Positions 1,461 to 64,000 of a stretch of DNA of 64,000 nt are shown here, piece after piece; the stretch's first letter is position 1; every line of letters starts with the position of its first letter. The stretch lies in sequence record OR352947.1; one strand, written 5' to 3'. The DNA comes from Escherichia phage AV117. The notes beneath the pieces are model-generated. The model did no database searches. It was not told where the DNA came from and saw only the letters and a program-made list of their open reading frames with translations. Position numbers and translations under genes: made by a program.

Positions 1461-1468
1461 TAAAATTA

Positions 1469-1645
1469 TGCAACAACCTTTCCAAAACGAGAAGCATCAT
1501 CTCGAAGAACTGCACGTGCTCTGCGCATGATCTTCTCAACTGTTTGATTAATACGAGAGTTCGACCCACGCTTGTATCCAGCGCGTTTAGAGGTACCATC
1601 AACTTTCTTTTCAACTGCTTTCTTTGCTTTAGCTTGTTTTGCCAT
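1469..1645 (-). CDS. small basic protein, 58 aa (MAKQAKAKKAVEKKVDGTSKRAGYKRGSN...), below ORF-track size cut-off
   Basis: Manual translation; stop abuts UUCG hairpin; coordinates hand-counted. Confidence 0.4.
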
Positions 1646-2571: not shown

Positions 2572-2880
2572 TTACATAAGAAGCAAACGTTCTACCGGAG
2601 TGCCATCAACCGAAATTACTTTATCAAGGCGGAAAGAACGCCACTGACCTAACTTGGTATCGAATGCTCGAACTGATTCACGAGGTTCATAACGAACTTC
2701 TGTTGCTGGATTGTTATTTTCGTATTTGACTTCAAGTTCATCGCGCGAAGCAAACATAGTGCGTACCTCGCCGTTAGCCTTTTCAAATACAACACAATGA
2801 ACGCCTACAGACAGAATAGTTTTAATACGTTCACGAAGAACCATAGTTTCTTGTTCAGTTAAAATCATATTATTCACCAC
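2572..2880 (-). CDS. hypothetical protein (102 aa), T4 31.x-like position
   Basis: ORF track; synteny. Confidence 0.55.
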   Translation of the reverse strand: MVNNMILTEQETMVLRERIKTILSVGVHCVVFEKANGEVRTMFASRDELEVKYENNNPATEVRYEPRESVRAFDTKLGQWRSFRLDKVISVDGTPVERLLLM

Positions 2881-3451
2881 AAAAGTTTCGGATTTGTTCC
2901 CAATTCAGAGAACGAAGATTATTACGAGAGTACTGAATTACTTCAATACCAGCTTGTTTTAGAATGTCTGCCCAATTTTCAGGAGATCGGTCATATAATT
3001 CTGCATATACAACCTTTTTAATACCTGACTGTGTAATAGCTTTAGTGCAATCAGGACATGGAGAAAGTGTCGTATACAACGTAGCACCTTCAATAGAATT
3101 ACCTTTACGAGCTGCAAACAAAATTGCATTCAGTTCCGCATGGATTTCGTTATTAGCGGACCATGCACTATGAGCAGCCCGATGTTCTTTAGCCAAAACA
3201 AAATTATCGGCCCGTCCAAATGCTGTAGTGCCTTCTTTATGCCCAGCAACGATGACTGGGATTGGTTTATTCTTCAACCAACCATTTTCAGATGCATGTT
3301 CGCAACAGTTAACGCCACCTGCAGGTGAACCGTTATACCCAGTAGAAATAATGCGCCCATCTTTTTCAATGACTGCGCCAACTTTCCATGAACAACATTT
3401 TGATTCTTGAGAAATCAGATATGCAATCTGAAGGTATGTGCTAGCTTTCAT
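2870..3451 (-). CDS. cd: dCMP deaminase
   Basis: 193 aa; cytidine/dCMP deaminase zinc motifs (CAEH...PCPDC); T4 cd position. Confidence 0.9.
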   Translation of the reverse strand: MKASTYLQIAYLISQESKCCSWKVGAVIEKDGRIISTGYNGSPAGGVNCCEHASENGWLKNKPIPVIVAGHKEGTTAFGRADNFVLAKEHRAAHSAWSANNEIHAELNAILFAARKGNSIEGATLYTTLSPCPDCTKAITQSGIKKVVYAELYDRSPENWADILKQAGIEVIQYSRNNLRSLNWEQIRNFCGE

Positions 3452-4443
3452 TATTGAACCTTATTAATATAAGTTAACAGCTCTTTAGTTTGTTCCCAAC
3501 TGATGCACGCATCGGTAACGGAAACGCCATAGGACATATTATCAGAAATTTTTTGATTTCCTTCATGTAGGAATGATTCTATCATAATTCCTTTGACCAA
3601 ATCATTAGCTGCTAAATTTTTACCAATACCAATTTGATTGCTATAATGACCATCAGCGTTTGCATGGCTACAGTCAACCATTACATAATGATTCAGACCT
3701 ACTGCCCTTGCTTTGTTAGAAGCTTCTTGAATATCAGAAGAATGATAGTTCGGGCCGTTGGTCCCGCCACGCAATACGATATGCGTATTCTGATTACCTT
3801 CAGCTTCAACAATGCCTACAGTACCATCGACGTCCATACCCATATACCGATGAGGCCAGGCGGCACTATACATCGCGTCTGTAGCTACTTTAATAGAACC
3901 ATTGGTTGCGTTCTTGAAGCCTACGCACATCGGTAGACCTGAAGCAATTTCACGATGTGTCTGACTTTCAGTCGTACGGGCGCCAATAGCAACCCATGAG
4001 AAAATACCAGAAAGATACTTAATCGTGAATGGGTCTAATACTTCAGTTGCTAATGGAAGTCCCATACGTAGAAGTTTACGACACAATGTTCGTGCAACTA
4101 TAAGACCGTGGTTCATATCAAAACTTCCGTCAAGATATGGATCATTTACAAGACCTTTCCAACCTACGGTAGTTCGAGGCTTTTCAAAATAAACGCGCAT
4201 CACTAACAGAACATTAGGAAGACGAGTTTGAAGTTCAGCCAGACGTTTGCCGTATTCAACAGCAGCAATAGGGTCATGAATTGAACAAGGACCTACAACA
4301 ATAAGTTTGCGTGGGTCTTCACCGTTCATAATCGAATTAACTTGTTCGCGATGAGAAGCCACTTGTGATGCGTAAGCTTCCGACAAAGGAATAATCTCAG
4401 CCAGTTCTTTTGGAGAAATAAGTTTTCTGATGACAGGTAACAT
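3451..4443 (-). CDS. 3-deoxy-7-phosphoheptulonate (DAHP) synthase, class I AroG/AroF-like
   Basis: 330 aa; colinear similarity to E. coli AroG including VMRVYFEKPRTTVGWKGL, IGARTTESQ, GFKN, ILRGG, SHAN, ESxLxEGNQ motifs. Confidence 0.85.
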   Translation of the reverse strand: MLPVIRKLISPKELAEIIPLSEAYASQVASHREQVNSIMNGEDPRKLIVVGPCSIHDPIAAVEYGKRLAELQTRLPNVLLVMRVYFEKPRTTVGWKGLVNDPYLDGSFDMNHGLIVARTLCRKLLRMGLPLATEVLDPFTIKYLSGIFSWVAIGARTTESQTHREIASGLPMCVGFKNATNGSIKVATDAMYSAAWPHRYMGMDVDGTVGIVEAEGNQNTHIVLRGGTNGPNYHSSDIQEASNKARAVGLNHYVMVDCSHANADGHYSNQIGIGKNLAANDLVKGIMIESFLHEGNQKISDNMSYGVSVTDACISWEQTKELLTYINKVQ

Positions 4444-4563
4444 AACAATCCTTAGGAGATATAAACAGATTCTGATTCAACAATACCTTTAACCGGATTA
4501 GACAGGCTAAGTTAGTAGTGCTCAGATTTATGACCATTCTCGATAGTAATTAGATAACTCTCA

Positions 4564-4800
4564 TTATAGTGTTCCATATACTCGAGTTGCTTCAACGAGA
4601 CCATCACTGCCTAATTTAAGATTAGTAATTTGGTCACCATCTTTAGGATTAACGATTATGAGAAAAGAACGAGGAGATTCTTGAATAACTCGTAATGTTG
4701 CATCCTGGAAACGTTCAGACACTTTATTGATGAGTGTTTGAGCGAATTCTTTTACTTTAATCTGAAATTCGTGTACTGTAATTGGATTTTCACTTAGCAT
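4564..4800 (-). CDS. hypothetical protein (78 aa)
   Basis: ORF track; promoter-like element upstream. Confidence 0.5.
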   Translation of the reverse strand: MLSENPITVHEFQIKVKEFAQTLINKVSERFQDATLRVIQESPRSFLIIVNPKDGDQITNLKLGSDGLVEATRVYGTL

Positions 4801-4827: not shown

Positions 4828-4857
4828 ATCATATCACAACTCTACTGTGTTGTAAAC
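4828..4857 (-). promoter_or_regulatory. early-type promoter-like element (-35 GTTTAC), approximate
   Basis: gtaaac at 4852-4857 on + strand upstream of minus-strand ORF; inverted repeat in spacer. Confidence 0.4.
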
Positions 4858-5537: not shown

Positions 5538-6623
<1,086 letters not shown>

Positions 6624-6624
<1 letters not shown>

Positions 6625-6923
6625 TATTTTATTCCTAAGAAAATTTCAAGAATACGAATGTTATGCTCGCGCCGGTCTTTATTAATTTCAGCAACGTTTT
6701 TATTAATTGACGTACTTCTAACGTTTGAAGAAATAAATTTAATCATATGACTTTTGAGTTGTTGCAAATCCAACCCTTTTTCTTTAGCAGCTTTACGAAG
6801 AGCTTTACCTGCTTCATCTAGTGCCTTTGCTGCATCTTTGTCATAATTGCCAAGTGACATTCCACGACAGATATCAATATACTCATCAGACCGTTTGATG
6901 TAATTCTCTAGTAATGTTTTCAT
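6624..6923 (-). CDS. hypothetical protein (99 aa)
   Basis: ORF track; promoter-like element upstream. Confidence 0.5.
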
Positions 6924-6951
6924 TTAGATTTCCTCAATTATCCATAGGAGC

Positions 6952-6981
6952 ATTATACTCTGCTCCTGAGAGTTTGTAAAC
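6952..6981 (-). promoter_or_regulatory. early-type promoter-like element (-35 GTTTAC, -10 TATAAT) with inverted repeat AGGAGCA/TGCTCCT bracketing -10
   Basis: gtaaac at 6976-6981; attata at 6952-6957; inverted repeat 6946-6967. Confidence 0.5.
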
Positions 6982-7205
6982 TATTTTACTAAAGATTCAA
7001 TATACTCGTGAAGAGCTTTAGTCGCTACTGCCCACTTATTCTGATATTCATTTTTCAGATTAGCACGAGACTGAACTAACAATCGGTCATTAGTCGGAGG
7101 CAAAGATTCTAATCGTTGAATCTGGCGCCCATAAATCATAGCCGCCATTTCAGATTCATAGATAAGCCCTTTAATGTATTCATGCTGTTCTTTAGTCATT
7201 GGCAT
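6981..7205 (-). CDS. hypothetical protein (74 aa)
   Basis: ORF track. Confidence 0.5.
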   Translation of the reverse strand: MPMTKEQHEYIKGLIYESEMAAMIYGRQIQRLESLPPTNDRLLVQSRANLKNEYQNKWAVATKALHEYIESLVK

Positions 7206-7486
7206 TTTTCCTCTTTTAAACCACTACGATAATAACATATCATAGTCTTCTGGTCATGTACATATCTTTTTACGTCGTTTAACCAGATACGAAATTCTTG
7301 AGAGTCTTCAAACGGCATTCCAACCCACGGATTACCATCAATAACCTTTACTTGCCATTTCTGGTTATATTCAACAATAGATTCAGGCCATGGCGGATGT
7401 AAAGTTTCTTTAGGGCTTAAGGGCACATCCTGGGCACATCCGGCCAAAATGCCAATAGATAATACAACTGCGGTTAATTTAATCAT
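7196..7486 (-). CDS. putative lipoprotein (96 aa; signal peptide with LAGC lipobox)
   Basis: N-terminus MIKLTAVVLSIGILAGCAQ. Confidence 0.55.
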   Translation of the reverse strand: MIKLTAVVLSIGILAGCAQDVPLSPKETLHPPWPESIVEYNQKWQVKVIDGNPWVGMPFEDSQEFRIWLNDVKRYVHDQKTMICYYRSGLKEEKCQ

Positions 7487-62175: not shown

Positions 62176-62724
62176 TTAACGAGCCCATTTGATAATTTCT
62201 GTAATCAAATTATTACGTTCGCTTGCATTAAATCCTATAACTTTGTTAGCACCATCATGATTAAGTAATTGATACGTTTGGATTTTGTTATGAATTGCAA
62301 ACTCTTCAAAATATGAAATGACTGTATTAAAACCGAATGAAGACAAAGTAATAAGGTCGTCTTCAAAACTTTCAGTCATTTCGTTACGTGTTAAAATAAT
62401 TGTGAACACATCATGGTTTTGGCAAAGACGAACATAATCCTGTTCATAAACGTCAAGAACCGAGTCCACATCTTGTCGAATACGTCCATAAACCCAGTTA
62501 CTAATATATCCACGGTCTAACAGATAAATCTTAGTAGGGTCTAAATAATTCAACATCGTTTCGAAACAGCCAACTTCATTTCGAGACTTAACATCGAAAC
62601 GTCCATCAACTGTTCGTTTAGGGAAATCAATCTTTACATATCTTTCACTAATTTCCATTATGTCATTAATGAAAGTTGTTTTACCAGCATTATCCGGGCC
62701 ATCTACTAAAATAATTTTAGCCAT
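62176..62724 (-). CDS. P-loop nucleoside/nucleotide kinase-like protein (thymidylate-kinase-like fold signature)
   Basis: 182 aa; Walker A VDGPDNAGKTT and DRGYISNWVYG resembling the DRY..S..AYQ lid region of dNMP kinases. Confidence 0.6.
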   Translation of the reverse strand: MAKIILVDGPDNAGKTTFINDIMEISERYVKIDFPKRTVDGRFDVKSRNEVGCFETMLNYLDPTKIYLLDRGYISNWVYGRIRQDVDSVLDVYEQDYVRLCQNHDVFTIILTRNEMTESFEDDLITLSSFGFNTVISYFEEFAIHNKIQTYQLLNHDGANKVIGFNASERNNLITEIIKWAR

Positions 62725-62725
62725 T

Positions 62726-63625
62726 TTATTCCTCGATTACGACATCTTCATATTTAGGTATATTATACGGCGAAGAAATTAAAGCATTAAAGTAGATGAA
62801 CTCGCCAAGACCTGGATGGAATACTTCTTCAGGATTTTCGAAGTATTGAATCTTCGGACGTCCTTTAAGAATTTGATAGTACTCAGTTTTAGTTGGTTTA
62901 AAAATTCGAATCAGCGCTTCTTCAGGATACTTATTTCTGTCGAAGCTATTATTTGGATCGGTTATATAAAGCGGTTGACCTAATTGAATTGCACATTCAA
63001 CCACTTGTTCAAAACGATAGCACGGGTCACTAATTCGAAATGGATGAAAAATACCATCTAGATGAATAGGAGCCAAATCACCTACAAGACGCTGCATGAT
63101 GGAAGGACGTATAACTTTCTGCGTTACGATAATCTTATTACCATCTGCACCTGCGTTAACCAGCACTTCTTTTTGACGTTCATTCAACACAGTAGTTTGA
63201 AGTGAACGATTAACAGACAACATGTCGGTTTTTAAGAATTCGTCAATATAAAAACGTGGTTTATTAGGGTCTGCAGTGATATTGAAATTGAATTCTACGT
63301 CAAAAGTGCCGTCATATCCAGTGATATCTGTGATTAGAAAATCACAATCATAATAATCAATTAATGAATCAACCACAAATTCATTTTCAGACCAGAAATA
63401 TTTACGAGTGTTATATGCGTTATCTTTATACCATAATGGAACAAACTTAAATTCTGGGAAAAGTCGTTCACATTCTTTAATATCAGATGCATTACGTGGA
63501 TATGTAATCACATCACCCGGATTAGCACGGTGCAAATGAAGTTGGAAGTTGCCATCCTTAAGGATAGCATACTGTCCAGTTTCATAAGACCGCATACTCA
63601 AGATAGGTACGCGGAAAATAGCCAT
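62726..63625 (-). CDS. hypothetical protein (299 aa), no recognisable motif
   Basis: ORF track; abuts kinase-like ORF (stop 62726, next start 62724). Confidence 0.6.
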   Translation of the reverse strand: MAIFRVPILSMRSYETGQYAILKDGNFQLHLHRANPGDVITYPRNASDIKECERLFPEFKFVPLWYKDNAYNTRKYFWSENEFVVDSLIDYYDCDFLITDITGYDGTFDVEFNFNITADPNKPRFYIDEFLKTDMLSVNRSLQTTVLNERQKEVLVNAGADGNKIIVTQKVIRPSIMQRLVGDLAPIHLDGIFHPFRISDPCYRFEQVVECAIQLGQPLYITDPNNSFDRNKYPEEALIRIFKPTKTEYYQILKGRPKIQYFENPEEVFHPGLGEFIYFNALISSPYNIPKYEDVVIEE

Positions 63626-64000
63626 TAGTCAAGGAATCCTTTAACATAATCAAAATCACGTTCAAACACATGGGCACTTACCATGGTATGAGTATAATCA
63701 CCAACTTCTACACCACATTCTTTAGCGATATAATGAAGTAATTTTCCTTGGAGATAAAAATCCAACTGCATAACAACAGCACAGTTCTGAGAACGCATAT
63801 GGCAGTGGGTATAAAGCTTACCATCACGAATATAATAAGTCACTGAGTCAGTACATGGATATTCAAGTGTTTCGTCCGAATCAAGCAAAGCCTGATCTGA
63901 ACTTTCAAGAATTTGAAACACAACTCTTCGAGAGTTAGGTTTTTCTTTAAGTTCTTTTAGAAGAGTTGGTAACTGGGCCGCAATGCGAGGACCGTAGAAA
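63625..64000 (-). CDS. thymidylate-synthase-family pyrimidine hydroxymethylase (gene 42-like), C-terminal part; 5' end outside window
   Basis: Open frame continues past the GTG reported by ORF track to the window edge; motifs P.SRR, catalytic PCTD, YYIRD, MRSQN align with the TS/dCMP-hydroxymethylase fold. Confidence 0.6.
   Translation of the reverse strand, partial: FYGPRIAAQLPTLLKELKEKPNSRRVVFQILESSDQALLDSDETLEYPCTDSVTYYIRDGKLYTHCHMRSQNCAVVMQLDFYLQGKLLHYIAKECGVEVGDYTHTMVSAHVFERDFDYVKGFLD

Follow-up and report, generated by a model that had tools for sequence, protein, structure and literature searches.

A phage-encoded DAHP synthase with a substituted feedback-inhibition site and its possible link to a U32-family protein of the 5-hydroxycytosine DNA-modification cluster

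Introduction

The closest described relatives of the enzyme considered here are the DAHP synthases (DAHPS) of Escherichia coli, AroF, AroG and AroH (PDB 6agm, 1kfl/1gg1). In AroG, it has been reported that Q151 and S180 contact the inhibitor and that P150L, S180F and F209A are feedback-resistant mutants (PMC9529685). Another related group is that of the bacterial bifunctional DAHPS-chorismate mutase proteins (for example of the NCBIfam NF009239 type). A second family that bears on this locus is peptidase U32, of which RlhA and TrhP are enzymes that depend on prephenate as hydroxyl donor (PMC13602947).

A third described system is the arabinosyl-5-hydroxycytosine pathway of phages RB69 and HY126 (Afh genes), where RB69 gp48 and a dNMP kinase suffice for E. 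coli to produce 5hodC when O2 is present (PMC13326640), so that no U32-family protein is required in air. Their ThyA homologue has been reported to work with flavin and O2 and not as a folate-dependent hydroxymethylase, and the authors guessed that the U32 protein is a "sugar or heterocycle reductase" (PMC13326640). In this account the U32 label is that of a tentative reductase, and DAHPS and chorismate mutase are unmentioned.

A DAHPS gene is already annotated in about 200 T4-like phage genomes and is not itself new; the new points are its loss of regulation, its co-occurrence with U32 and its independent recurrence. In a literature search of partial coverage, no functional study of any phage DAHPS was found, and the sole mention found of such a gene was a domain listing for phage phiC120 (PMC8022965). 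Here we describe the gene in Escherichia phage AV117 (OR352947.1), an RB69-like phage of the genus Mosigvirus, using a stretch of 64,000 nucleotides (the window) that ends inside the arabinosyl-5-hydroxycytosine cluster.

The DAHPS gene and its surroundings

The gene lies on the minus strand, which the earlier note had left unstated, in a T4-type block with the order gp31-cd-[DAHPS]-pseT-rnlA-denA-nrdB-nrdA-td-frd, and its immediate surroundings are as follows:

4828..4856, minus strand: candidate sigma-70-like promoter, TTTACA-17-TATGAT with TG, upstream of the DUF7320-DAHPS-cd run (10/12 match, weak)
4564..4800, minus strand: small DUF7320 ORF, a cd.2 homologue, directly upstream of DAHPS (PF24005, 3e-35)
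4449..4454, minus strand: Shine-Dalgarno sequence TAAGGA, with a spacer of 5 nt to the DAHPS ATG (direct sequence reading)
3451..4443, minus strand: DAHPS gene, type I-alpha, 330 aa, with intact catalytic core, missing N-terminal regulatory strand and substituted allosteric pocket (TIGR00034, 428 bits)
2870..3451, minus strand: dCMP deaminase gene (cd), its start codon overlapping the DAHPS stop (PF00383, 1.5e-26)

No start codon lies between the preceding stop and the one at 4443, so the 330-aa ORF has no possible upstream extension. Its third-position GC content (29%) is similar to that of its neighbours, as opposed to 50-57% in E. coli aroF and aroG. The DUF7320 ORF and DAHPS probably belong to one early transcription unit, and no minus-strand terminator-like site was found in the scan between the promoter match and cd. 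Promoter and terminator sites around DAHPS are, however, no more numerous than in shuffled sequence, and no firm claim is made for the transcription unit.

The earlier note had described the DAHPS stop as overlapping the cd start in an ATGA and had taken the two genes to be coupled. The overlap is real, but it reads TAATG, with one shared A (...CAA TAATG AAA...). Translational coupling in AV117 thus stands, while a conserved functional pairing with cd does not, as small ORFs separate DAHPS from cd in Winklervirus and Bragavirus. Since the direct overlap is not universal, the coupling is best regarded as positional, within a plastic cd-pseT interval. In at least one natural Mosigvirus, JK42, the DAHPS gene is cleanly missing and the DUF7320 ORF abuts cd directly, which indicates that the gene is dispensable under laboratory conditions.

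Identity and active site of the enzyme

The assignment to the class I AroF/G/H type, proposed in the earlier note, is confirmed by profile searches, with a Pfam match to PF00793 (E=5e-75, 252 bits), a full-length match to NCBIfam TIGR00034 aroFGH (428.5 bits, cut-off 173.2) and a match to NF009395 (455.9, cut-off 343). The scores against the AroG and AroH equivalog models of NCBIfam are under their cut-offs (364.5 for a cut-off of 568 and 386.7 for 463, respectively). The closest solved structure is E. coli AroF (6agm, E=4e-105), followed by AroG at E=1e-91, and full-length homology to the solved AroF leaves no doubt about the fold. Identity to E. coli AroG is 47% over the full length, and the motifs KPRTTVGWKGL, IGARTTESQ and ESFLHEGNQ quoted from the sequence are all present. 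Compared with AroH, AroG and AroF, the phage enzyme lacks 18-26 residues, in part because its N-terminal strand is missing.

A careful alignment, which had been named as a way in which lost catalytic residues would come to light, revealed no such loss. The metal ligands Cys61, His268, Glu302 and Asp326 (AroG numbering) are kept in AV117 and in 28/28 phage-clade sequences, and the PEP and erythrose-4-phosphate (E4P) residues R92, K97-P98-R99-T100 (KPRT), G163-A164-R165, K186 and R234 are likewise all kept, so that metal ligands, both substrate sites and KPRT are identical to those of AroF, AroG and AroH. Altogether 14/14 catalytic and substrate-binding residues are invariant in the 28 phage-clade sequences. 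KdsA carries a KANRS-type motif where DAHPS has KPRT, and none of the significant NCBIfam matches of the phage protein is to a KDO8PS model. From its identity and its intact active site, the product is predicted to be a catalytically competent type I-alpha DAHP synthase that would condense PEP and erythrose-4-phosphate to DAHP.

Loss of the feedback-inhibition site

While the catalytic residues are unchanged, every conserved position that contacts the inhibitor is substituted (P150I, Q151K, D155G, S180P and F209Y in AroG numbering), and P182 of AroG is likewise replaced. Among 98 cellular homologues these positions are nearly invariant (Q151 in 98/98, S180 and F209 each in 97/98, D155 in 95/98, P150 in 91/98), whereas the phage clade has K or R at 151, P at 180 and Y at 209 in 28/28 sequences and G at 155 and I at 150 in 27/28. 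The N-terminal strand, which completes the inhibitor site, is absent as well: the alignment to AroF begins at AroF residue 17 and phage residue 8, so that the first ~9 residues relative to AroF are missing, and 28/28 phage-clade sequences have gaps opposite AroG D6 and D7.

The phage changes fall at the same positions as those of the engineered feedback-resistant enzymes AroG P150L, S180F and F209A and AroF P148L (PMC9529685), as opposed to which they are natural, multiple and kept clade-wide. With the N-terminal regulatory strand missing and the inhibitor contacts replaced, the phage DAHPS is probably feedback-insensitive, and the clade would offer a natural collection of DAHP synthases with probable resistance to such inhibition, of relevance to the metabolic engineering of aromatic compounds.

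Age and distribution of the phage clade

The phylogeny that had been proposed as a check places the phage enzymes in a clade of their own (neighbour joining, 200 bootstrap replicates; monophyletic in 166/200), separate from AroF, AroG and AroH and about 50-55% identical to any cellular DAHPS. The clade is old: the gene occupies the same pseT-cd slot in the four genera examined, and its third-position GC content resembles that of its neighbours. Sequence identity within the clade falls as low as 57-77%. T4 and most of the ~960 T4-like records sharing the td/frd/nrd block are without it.

The location in a variable cd-pseT interval of a hyperplastic region, together with the clean absence from JK42, would suit a functionless or decaying passenger gene. 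Such a gene would hardly be expected to keep its position in at least four genera, to conserve its catalytic residues at 100% and to retain clade-specific pocket substitutions at 57-77% identity, which makes a passenger barely credible.

Co-occurrence with U32 and chorismate mutase

Among phage records, 212 encode DAHPS and 221 encode U32, with 191 encoding both in a union of 242. The 21 records with DAHPS only comprise 17 at under 60% identity and ~4 others that are apparently genome fragments; the inspected records under 60% proved to be bacterial DNA under a wrong label, metagenomic fragments that are unverified, or Aeromonas phage HJ05, an unrelated phage with a DAHPS-like gene and no U32. 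Matches from "Acinetobacter phage MD-2021a" were set aside because the contig inspected is clearly bacterial, as were those from "Bacteriophage sp.", which are short, unverified and unannotated fragments. Among T4-like phages, DAHPS is confined to genomes that carry the peptidase-U32 protein in the 5-hydroxycytosine DNA-modification cluster, and its distribution follows neither arabinose genes nor folate enzymes. As there may have been one ancestral acquisition of both genes, this co-occurrence may represent few independent events.

A third gene is part of this pattern. A chorismate mutase (PF01817, CM_2) lies between U32 and the ThyA homologue (dCMP hydroxylase) in 54 phage records, and most of the T4-like lineages with DAHPS and U32 also encode it. 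Mosigvirus and Marfavirus keep DAHPS and have no chorismate mutase, while Tegunavirus and Serratia phage 92A1 show the reverse. A tblastn search of the Mosigvirus U32-ThyA interval and of the whole window for a decayed chorismate mutase gave nothing significant (best E=0.08-0.6).

The folate rationale of the earlier note, in which more chorismate would give more pABA and folate for td, frd and the dCMP-modifying enzymes, has to be weighed against this distribution. Chorismate is the pABA precursor, and DAHPS shares its early block with td and frd. DAHPS tracks U32, however, and most of the td/frd block carriers are without it; the co-occurring chorismate mutase would divert chorismate from pABA synthesis; no pabA/B/C or fol genes stand beside DAHPS at any locus examined; and the ThyA homologue, which would have been one beneficiary, is reported to use flavin and O2 (PMC13326640). 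The folate rationale is thus not supported, and we regard it as quite improbable.

A role in arabinose supply was rejected on the distribution in Acinetobacter as opposed to Klebsiella and Proteus phages: 57 Acinetobacter phage records carry arabinose-5-phosphate (A5P) isomerase with neither U32 nor DAHPS, while phages Marfa and Pm5461 carry U32 and DAHPS with no A5P isomerase.

Recurrence in non-T4 viral contigs

Another association of the two genes is found in unrelated viral contigs, where a U32 homologue lies at most ~0.7 kb from a type I-beta DAHPS. These loci were found with the U32 alignment as query; the single I-beta DAHPS of one contig (L015), used as query, found no viral relatives. 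The I-beta enzyme near U32 is core-only in L015 and L023 and is a DAHP_synth_1 + CM_2 fusion in L040, L046/L047, L049 and L053. The fusions resemble the bacterial bifunctional proteins, from which they differ in that the chorismate mutase is C-terminal and the I-beta N-terminal regulatory domain is absent, their matches beginning at profile position ~92-120 of the DAHPS models (~92-95 of 338 in NF006421). The AV117 enzyme differs from the bacterial bifunctional proteins in being I-alpha and unfused. The I-beta proteins score under the NCBIfam curated cut-offs, and none of 64 ORFs around four of these non-T4 U32/DAHPS genes is ThyA-like. Shared occurrence, neighbourhood and fusion of the genes lead us to infer a link between DAHPS, chorismate mutase and U32.

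The non-T4 genes lie amid SIS isomerase, HAD phosphatase and NTP-transferase genes that resemble the KDO pathway, which bears on a further suggestion of the earlier note, namely that the enzyme uses another sugar phosphate. It might, for example, condense PEP with A5P in a KDO8P-like reaction, either to build a sugar that decorates the DNA or to control the amount of arabinose phosphate. E. coli DAHPS(Phe) does accept A5P, if poorly. It has also been reported that the phage makes A5P for DNA arabinosylation (PMC13326640). Against this, KPRT and all metal, E4P and PEP ligands are identical to those of bona fide DAHPS, the I-beta proteins score 2-4 fold higher with DAHPS models than with KDO8PS models, the fusion partner is chorismate mutase, and, as mentioned above, DAHPS does not track A5P isomerase, being missing from the 57 isomerase-positive Acinetobacter records and present in the isomerase-negative Marfa and Pm5461. 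We consider another sugar substrate highly improbable.

A further reading is a general supply of aromatic amino acids. A deregulated DAHPS would boost Phe, Tyr and Trp for the burst of phage protein synthesis while the host pathway is repressed, which agrees with an enzyme that is intact and probably deregulated, and large phages often carry auxiliary metabolic genes that lift bottlenecks of the host. Any T4-like phage would gain from such a supply, yet DAHPS is confined to the U32-bearing lineages and recurs beside U32, or fused to chorismate mutase, in unrelated phages. A chorismate mutase alone, without prephenate dehydratase or dehydrogenase, would also leave the regulated steps to Phe and Tyr unrelieved, and on balance general aromatic supply seems unlikely.

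The U32 protein and the 5-hydroxycytosine cluster

At its far end, the window enters the 5-hydroxycytosine/arabinosylation cluster, with the following genes:

62176..62724, minus strand: thymidylate-kinase-like nucleotide kinase (RB69 gp45 homologue), first gene of the cluster (same position as the HY126 gene; function per PMC13326640)
62726..63625, minus strand: putative DNA arabinosyltransferase 1 (RB69 gp46:47 homologue; PMC13326640 Table 1)
63625..64000, minus strand: ThyA-homologue 5-hydroxy-dCMP synthase (RB69 gp48 homologue), C-terminal part, cut by the window end (HY126 comparison)

The 98-aa fragment of the ThyA homologue agrees at all but one residue with the C-terminal end of its HY126 counterpart, which matches PF00303. 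The U32 gene is placed just past the window end, its HY126 counterpart being at 108517-109677 and matching PF01136 at 7e-11. The phage U32 proteins belong to the same family as the Fe-S hydroxylases RlhA (5-hydroxycytidine, ho5C2501) and TrhP (5-hydroxyuridine, ho5U34) and as UbiU/UbiV, to which they are only remotely similar as a distinct subfamily of ~360-390 aa. Within this subfamily C193/C204/C210/C234 and a C-terminal CX4CX3CX2C, candidate ligands of an Fe-S cluster, are conserved. The best E. coli paralogue by hhalign is RlhA (84%, E=7e-6; TrhP 9%, UbiU 5%), and in this alignment of modest probability (84%) a single pair of cysteines coincides with the RlhA motif; a phmmer search against PDB chains gave no matches. 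The presumed substrate of the phage protein is a deoxycytidine nucleotide or DNA, as opposed to the RNA or quinone on which RlhA, TrhP and UbiU/UbiV act.

Prephenate or chorismate could also be drawn on elsewhere, for example for host TrhP/CmoA-dependent (c)mo5U34 in host or phage tRNAs or for anaerobic ubiquinone synthesis. TrhP and CmoA consume prephenate (PMC13602947), and T4-like phages rely on host translation. The phage U32 gene, however, sits within deoxynucleotide and DNA-glycosylation clusters in every lineage examined, and no CmoA/CmoB homologues were found in those clusters, which leaves such a sink decidedly improbable.

A proposed role for DAHPS in cytosine hydroxylation

Because the characterised U32 enzymes use prephenate, the best explanation of the linked genes is that the shikimate pathway is reopened for cytosine hydroxylation. 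We give somewhat better than an even chance to the proposal that DAHPS supplies prephenate to a phage U32 hydroxylase for 5-hydroxycytosine DNA. In this scheme, DAHPS would be expressed early alongside the nucleotide-metabolism genes and would reopen the shikimate pathway of the host at its first step. With its allosteric apparatus lost, it should stay active in cells whose own AroG, AroF and AroH are shut down by Phe, Tyr and Trp, and would provide more chorismate and then more prephenate. The step from chorismate to prephenate would be carried out by the phage-encoded chorismate mutase in most related lineages, while Mosigvirus and Marfavirus, in which that gene would have been lost, would rely on the chorismate mutase activity of host PheA/TyrA. 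The phage U32 protein, which is encoded beside the flavin/O2-dependent dCMP hydroxylase and whose chemistry and oxygen independence we infer from family membership, would then provide an O2-independent, prephenate-dependent route to the ~64,000 5-hydroxycytosines of each genome, an advantage in a gut that is anoxic. Against the scheme count the aerobic sufficiency of gp48 and a kinase, the modest similarity of the phage U32 to RlhA, the possibly few independent co-occurrences, the I-beta scores under the curated cut-offs, the HJ05 gene that stands with no U32, and, within Mosigvirus itself, the missing chorismate mutase and the DAHPS-free JK42.

A broader and more tentative proposal, whose chance we put a little short of even, is that DAHPS, chorismate mutase and U32 form a recurrent viral module in which prephenate is the oxygen donor for O2-independent cytosine 5-hydroxylation in DNA precursors. 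Beside the flavin/O2 ThyA homologue there would then be a second route, an anaerobic one, and the module would have been assembled at least twice, from I-alpha and I-beta DAHPS, both without regulatory elements.

If the link between DAHPS and U32 is true, the U32 gene of the recently described 5-hydroxycytosine/arabinosyl DNA pathway, so far unexplained, would have a function. The link would also explain how gut phages could make 5-hydroxycytosine without oxygen, and the prephenate-dependent hydroxylation by U32 enzymes would reach beyond RNA and quinones to DNA precursors. To our knowledge, no earlier case is known in which a virus takes over the shikimate pathway for a co-substrate of DNA hypermodification. 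The natural DAHPS-deletion phage JK42 makes the hypothesis directly testable.

A DAHP synthase gene beside cd

Over its first 12 kb, the window shares 96-97% identity with RB69-like Mosigvirus genomes (JS09, F2 and HY126 among them), and the genes of the window follow the order gp31-cd-DAHPS-pseT-rnlA-denA-nrdB-nrdA-td-frd, where cd encodes dCMP deaminase and DAHPS a DAHP synthase. The 330-aa reading frame described in the earlier note was recovered on the minus strand, and all of the motifs quoted for it are found in the protein. Features of this region are:

3451..4443, minus strand: DAHPS, 330 aa, starting at the earliest start codon that the preceding stop allows
4449-4454, minus strand: ribosome-binding site TAAGGA of DAHPS, 5 nt from the ATG
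2572-2880, minus strand: 102-aa WYL_2 (Sm-like SH3 barrel) domain protein, between gp31 and cd at the position of T4 31.1
1466-1645, minus strand: 59-aa lysine-rich ORF

In HY126, the counterpart of the 102-aa protein is labelled 'tail fibers protein', apparently in error, and the label '1,4-alpha-glucan branching enzyme' on the counterpart of the 59-aa ORF is a clear annotation artefact.

The last A of the DAHPS stop codon TAA is the first base of the cd ATG (…CAA TAATG AAA…), so that the proposed coupling to cd is real in this phage, but the overlap reads TAATG and not ATGA as had been given. This overlap is not conserved, since small ORFs keep the two genes apart in CHI14 and PM2. The pseT-cd interval holds DAHPS in Mosigvirus, Winklervirus, Marfavirus and Bragavirus alike, and the gene is phage-like in composition (GC 41%, GC3 29%; compared with GC 52-53% for E. 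coli aroF, aroG and aroH, and GC3 50-57% for aroF and aroG); the common site in four genera together with this composition points to one old acquisition. In a natural Mosigvirus isolate, Shigella phage JK42 (MK962756.1; 4481-5298 of fetched locus L068, equivalent to window 2870-4800), DAHPS has been cleanly deleted and cd directly abuts the cd.2/DUF7320 ORF. DAHPS is therefore an accessory gene, dispensable in the laboratory, and JK42 is a ready-made knockout for experiments.

By tblastn, the protein is present in 212 phage records, 139 of them Mosigvirus-type at at least 95% identity and the others including, at 57-77% identity, T4-like phages that infect Klebsiella, Serratia, Proteus, Enterobacter, Edwardsiella and Erwinia. 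The usual annotation is phospho-2-dehydro-3-deoxyheptonate aldolase, AroF or AroG, so the gene is already known in phages and is by itself an ordinary finding. Some records filed as phage look bacterial or unverified, which inflates such counts; these include L006 (CAKLQH020000056.1) and the MT83xxxx 'Bacteriophage sp.' records, and in the MD-2021a contig aroF lies beside cobalamin and aerobactin genes. No functional study of a phage DAHPS was found in the searchable literature, where the only mention is a domain listing for phage phiC120 (PMC8022965).

An intact active site and a lost regulatory site

The AroG-like identity proposed in the earlier note is borne out by matches to Pfam DAHP_synth_1 (5e-75) and NCBIfam TIGR00034 aroFGH (428 bits, cut-off 173), and by the closest solved structures, E. 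coli AroF (E=4e-105) followed by AroG (E=1e-91); the protein scores under the AroG and AroH equivalog cut-offs. In an alignment of 28 phage-clade sequences and 98 cellular homologues (the three E. coli enzymes AroG, AroF and AroH included), the metal ligands C61, H268, E302 and D326, the PEP residues R92, K97, G163-A164-R165, K186 and R234, and the erythrose-4-phosphate (E4P) residues P98-R99-T100 of the KPRT motif were invariant (AroG numbering here and below). No catalytic or substrate-binding residue has thus been lost. The phage proteins form a group of their own in a neighbour-joining tree (bootstrap 166/200), with the nearest cellular sequences no closer than ~55% identity. Judged by sequence, the phage gene is a genuine DAHP synthase with predicted catalysis.

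The inhibitor pocket has changed in the same proteins, which do not have the N-terminal residues that include D6 and D7 in AroG, and the substitutions are themselves conserved across the clade.

Inhibitor-pocket residues in cellular homologues and in the phage clade
P150: P in 91/98 cellular; I in 27/28 phage
Q151: Q in 98/98 cellular; K or R in 28/28 phage
D155: D in 95/98 cellular; G in 27/28 phage
S180: S in 97/98 cellular; P in 28/28 phage
P182: P in 90/98 cellular; C, T or A in 27/28 phage
F209: F in 97/98 cellular; Y in 28/28 phage

Two of these residues, Q151 and S180, contact the main chain of the bound inhibitor in AroG, for which P150L, S180F and F209A are published feedback-resistant mutants (PMC9529685); all three of these mutated positions are also changed in the phage enzyme. 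The phage DAHPS is likely to be an active enzyme that Phe, Tyr and Trp do not inhibit, and the conserved natural loss of its regulatory site is a new observation.

Co-occurrence with a peptidase-U32 family protein

DAHP synthase opens the pathway whose end product is chorismate, from which prephenate is made. Prephenate is the hydroxyl donor of the characterised U32 enzymes, which are Fe-S hydroxylases; RlhA forms 5-hydroxycytidine in 23S rRNA and TrhP forms 5-hydroxyuridine in tRNA (PMC13602947). In RB69-type phages cytosine is replaced by arabosylated 5-hydroxycytosine, and the pathway genes, between uvsX and the DNA polymerase gene, encode a flavin- and O2-using ThyA homologue for dCMP hydroxylation, kinases, arabinosyltransferases, arabinose-5-phosphate (A5P) isomerase and AfhE/AfhF-type sugar-activating enzymes (PMC13326640). 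The window ends within this cluster (62176-64000), and just past the window end lies a further gene of the cluster, that for RB69 gp50, a peptidase-U32 family protein (PF01136; U32 below). This protein has only tentatively been labelled 'sugar or heterocycle reductase', in a paper that makes no mention of DAHP synthase, chorismate or prephenate (PMC13326640).

U32 was found in 221 phage records, with a host distribution almost that of DAHPS. A chimeric DAHPS+U32 query matched 242 records, so that, given 212 and 221 for the single queries, 191 carry both. Among the 21 DAHPS-only records, 17 fall below 60% identity and the other ~4 look like genome fragments. Bacterial DNA (a mislabelled contig and a genome record) and unverified metagenomic fragments are among those below 60% that were inspected or listed, as is the unrelated Aeromonas phage HJ05, in which no U32 homologue was detected:

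L005 (fetched locus) 6257-7420: 387-aa DAHP_synth_1 protein of Aeromonas phage HJ05 (OQ594355.1), a 79-kb non-T4 phage; 38% identity

The HJ05 protein has intact catalytic residues and its own allosteric-site changes (P150A, Q151H, S180P), and nearby genes encode, among others, a SAM methyltransferase and an Asn-synthase/ThiI-like protein. The 30 U32-only records include six from Yersinia Tegunavirus and Serratia 92A1.

The A5P isomerase is distributed differently. It matched 275 records, 57 of them from Acinetobacter phages with neither U32 nor DAHPS, and Klebsiella is absent among its matches, though U32 occurs in 26 Klebsiella phage records; Klebsiella phage Marfa and Proteus phage Pm5461 have U32 and DAHPS with no A5P isomerase within 10 kb of U32. 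From this overlap and the isomerase distribution, DAHPS tracks U32 and not arabinosylation or folate enzymes. A general boost to aromatic amino acids is a possible role for DAHPS, but it leaves the restricted distribution unexplained. Acinetobacter is a strict aerobe, and the hosts of U32-bearing phages are facultative anaerobes, a split that fits an oxygen-independent role of U32 only circumstantially.

Chorismate mutase as a companion gene

Enterobacter phage Entb_45 and Serratia phage LC53 both encode a small chorismate mutase of the AroQ type (CM; PF01817, 2e-10 and 2e-11). Its gene is set between those for U32 and the ThyA homologue and overlaps each of them by 4 nt. By tblastn, CM is present in 54 records, always at or beside the ThyA-homologue and U32 genes; outside Mosigvirus almost all U32 lineages have it, Tegunavirus, which lacks DAHPS, among them. 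No CM or remnant was detected in Mosigvirus or Marfavirus, which both retain DAHPS. The ~280-bp U32-ThyA interval of HY126 (L002 13107-13385, past the window end) holds only 35-40-aa ORFs with no significant CM similarity; the corresponding interval holds CM in other genera, and Mosigvirus seems to have lost the gene but kept the spacer. Every U32-bearing T4-like lineage examined thus keeps at least one of DAHPS and CM, single isolates such as JK42 excepted.

Two steps are feedback-inhibited on the E. coli route to prephenate, DAHP synthase and chorismate mutase, the latter fused in PheA and TyrA. It is for exactly these two steps that phages bring stand-alone enzymes of their own. The earlier rationale that DAHPS feeds the folate supply is contradicted by both its distribution and this companion CM.

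DAHP synthase and U32 outside T4-like phages

The phage U32 subfamily, with invariant cysteines in two clusters, has many metagenomic relatives (~50-58% identity). In large viral contigs these always sit among genes with deoxynucleotide or DNA-glycosylation functions (dCMP deaminase, thymidylate-kinase-like, UDG, dUTPase, TAGT-like, GLF). In a profile comparison with four E. coli U32 proteins, RlhA was best (probability 84%, E=7e-6, 205 columns including one Cys pair), followed by TrhP (9%) and UbiU (5%), which is suggestive, not conclusive, of RlhA as the closest; phmmer against PDB sequences gave no match. In two megaphage-size contigs (L014 7447-9086, L018 7504-9083), a U32 homologue lies directly downstream of dCMP deaminase, so that U32 has the association with cd that DAHPS has in the window; genes for UDG, a polymerase of the DnaE type and a thymidylate-kinase-like protein adjoin it.

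Across 47 IMG/VR loci from a U32 profile search and seven Logan/ENA/JGI loci, seven non-T4 loci, or six distinct contigs, have a DAHP synthase no more than ~0.7 kb from U32. In L015 and L023 it is a 248-aa type I-beta catalytic core directly downstream of U32 (NCBIfam NF006421, 237 and 221 bits; KDO8P synthase models, 59-67 bits), and in L040, L046/L047, L049 and L053 a DAHP_synth_1 + CM_2 fusion with both Pfam domains significant. All I-beta proteins carry the KPRT motif and begin at ~92-95 of the 338-position NF006421 model, and so have no N-terminal regulatory domain.

The earlier suggestion of a related aldolase acting on a different sugar phosphate is contradicted by this fusion, by the conserved E4P site and by the lack of correlation between DAHPS and A5P isomerase. 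As U32 co-occurs with an I-alpha enzyme in T4-like phages and lies near I-beta enzymes elsewhere, the DAHPS-(CM)-U32 module has come together on at least two occasions, from distinct DAHPS classes and in unregulated forms both times, which is the strongest argument for a functional and not merely inherited association. This recurrent linkage of DAHPS to CM and a hydroxylase-family protein in DNA-hypermodification clusters is new.

A compact cluster from a glycosyltransferase-like gene to U32 occupies ~4-11 kb of the L040, L047, L049 and L053 loci, from large non-T4 phages; in the first three the order is glycosyltransferase-like, SIS isomerase, NTP-transferase/kinase, Tmk-like kinase, DAHPS-CM, HAD phosphatase, U32. 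These clusters resemble the RB69 arabinosylation cluster but differ from it in having no ThyA-like hydroxylase nearby (none among 64 ORFs within 10 kb in four of the non-T4 loci), and U32 may be the sole hydroxylase in these phages.

A candidate role in cytosine hydroxylation

The lost regulatory site and the recurrent CM/U32 linkage give DAHPS a specific, testable candidate function. In the mechanism judged most likely, the deregulated enzyme, expressed early with cd and other nucleotide genes, would push PEP and E4P into the host common shikimate pathway, which is otherwise largely unregulated, and flux would continue with plentiful aromatic amino acids and host transcription off. The step from chorismate to prephenate would fall to the phage CM or, in phages that have none, to the host, and U32 would use prephenate for hydroxylation at C5 of cytosine, either in a deoxycytidine nucleotide or in DNA, backing up or replacing the O2-dependent ThyA homologue under anoxia. 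Against this proposal count the CM-less Mosigvirus, the JK42 deletion, the DAHPS of HJ05 without U32, and the sufficiency of RB69 gp48, the ThyA homologue, plus a kinase for 5hodC synthesis in air (PMC13326640). A 169-kb genome at 37.8% GC holds ~64,000 cytosines. If a typical burst is assumed to release some hundred phages or more, millions of hydroxylations would be needed, a plausible demand on the phage.
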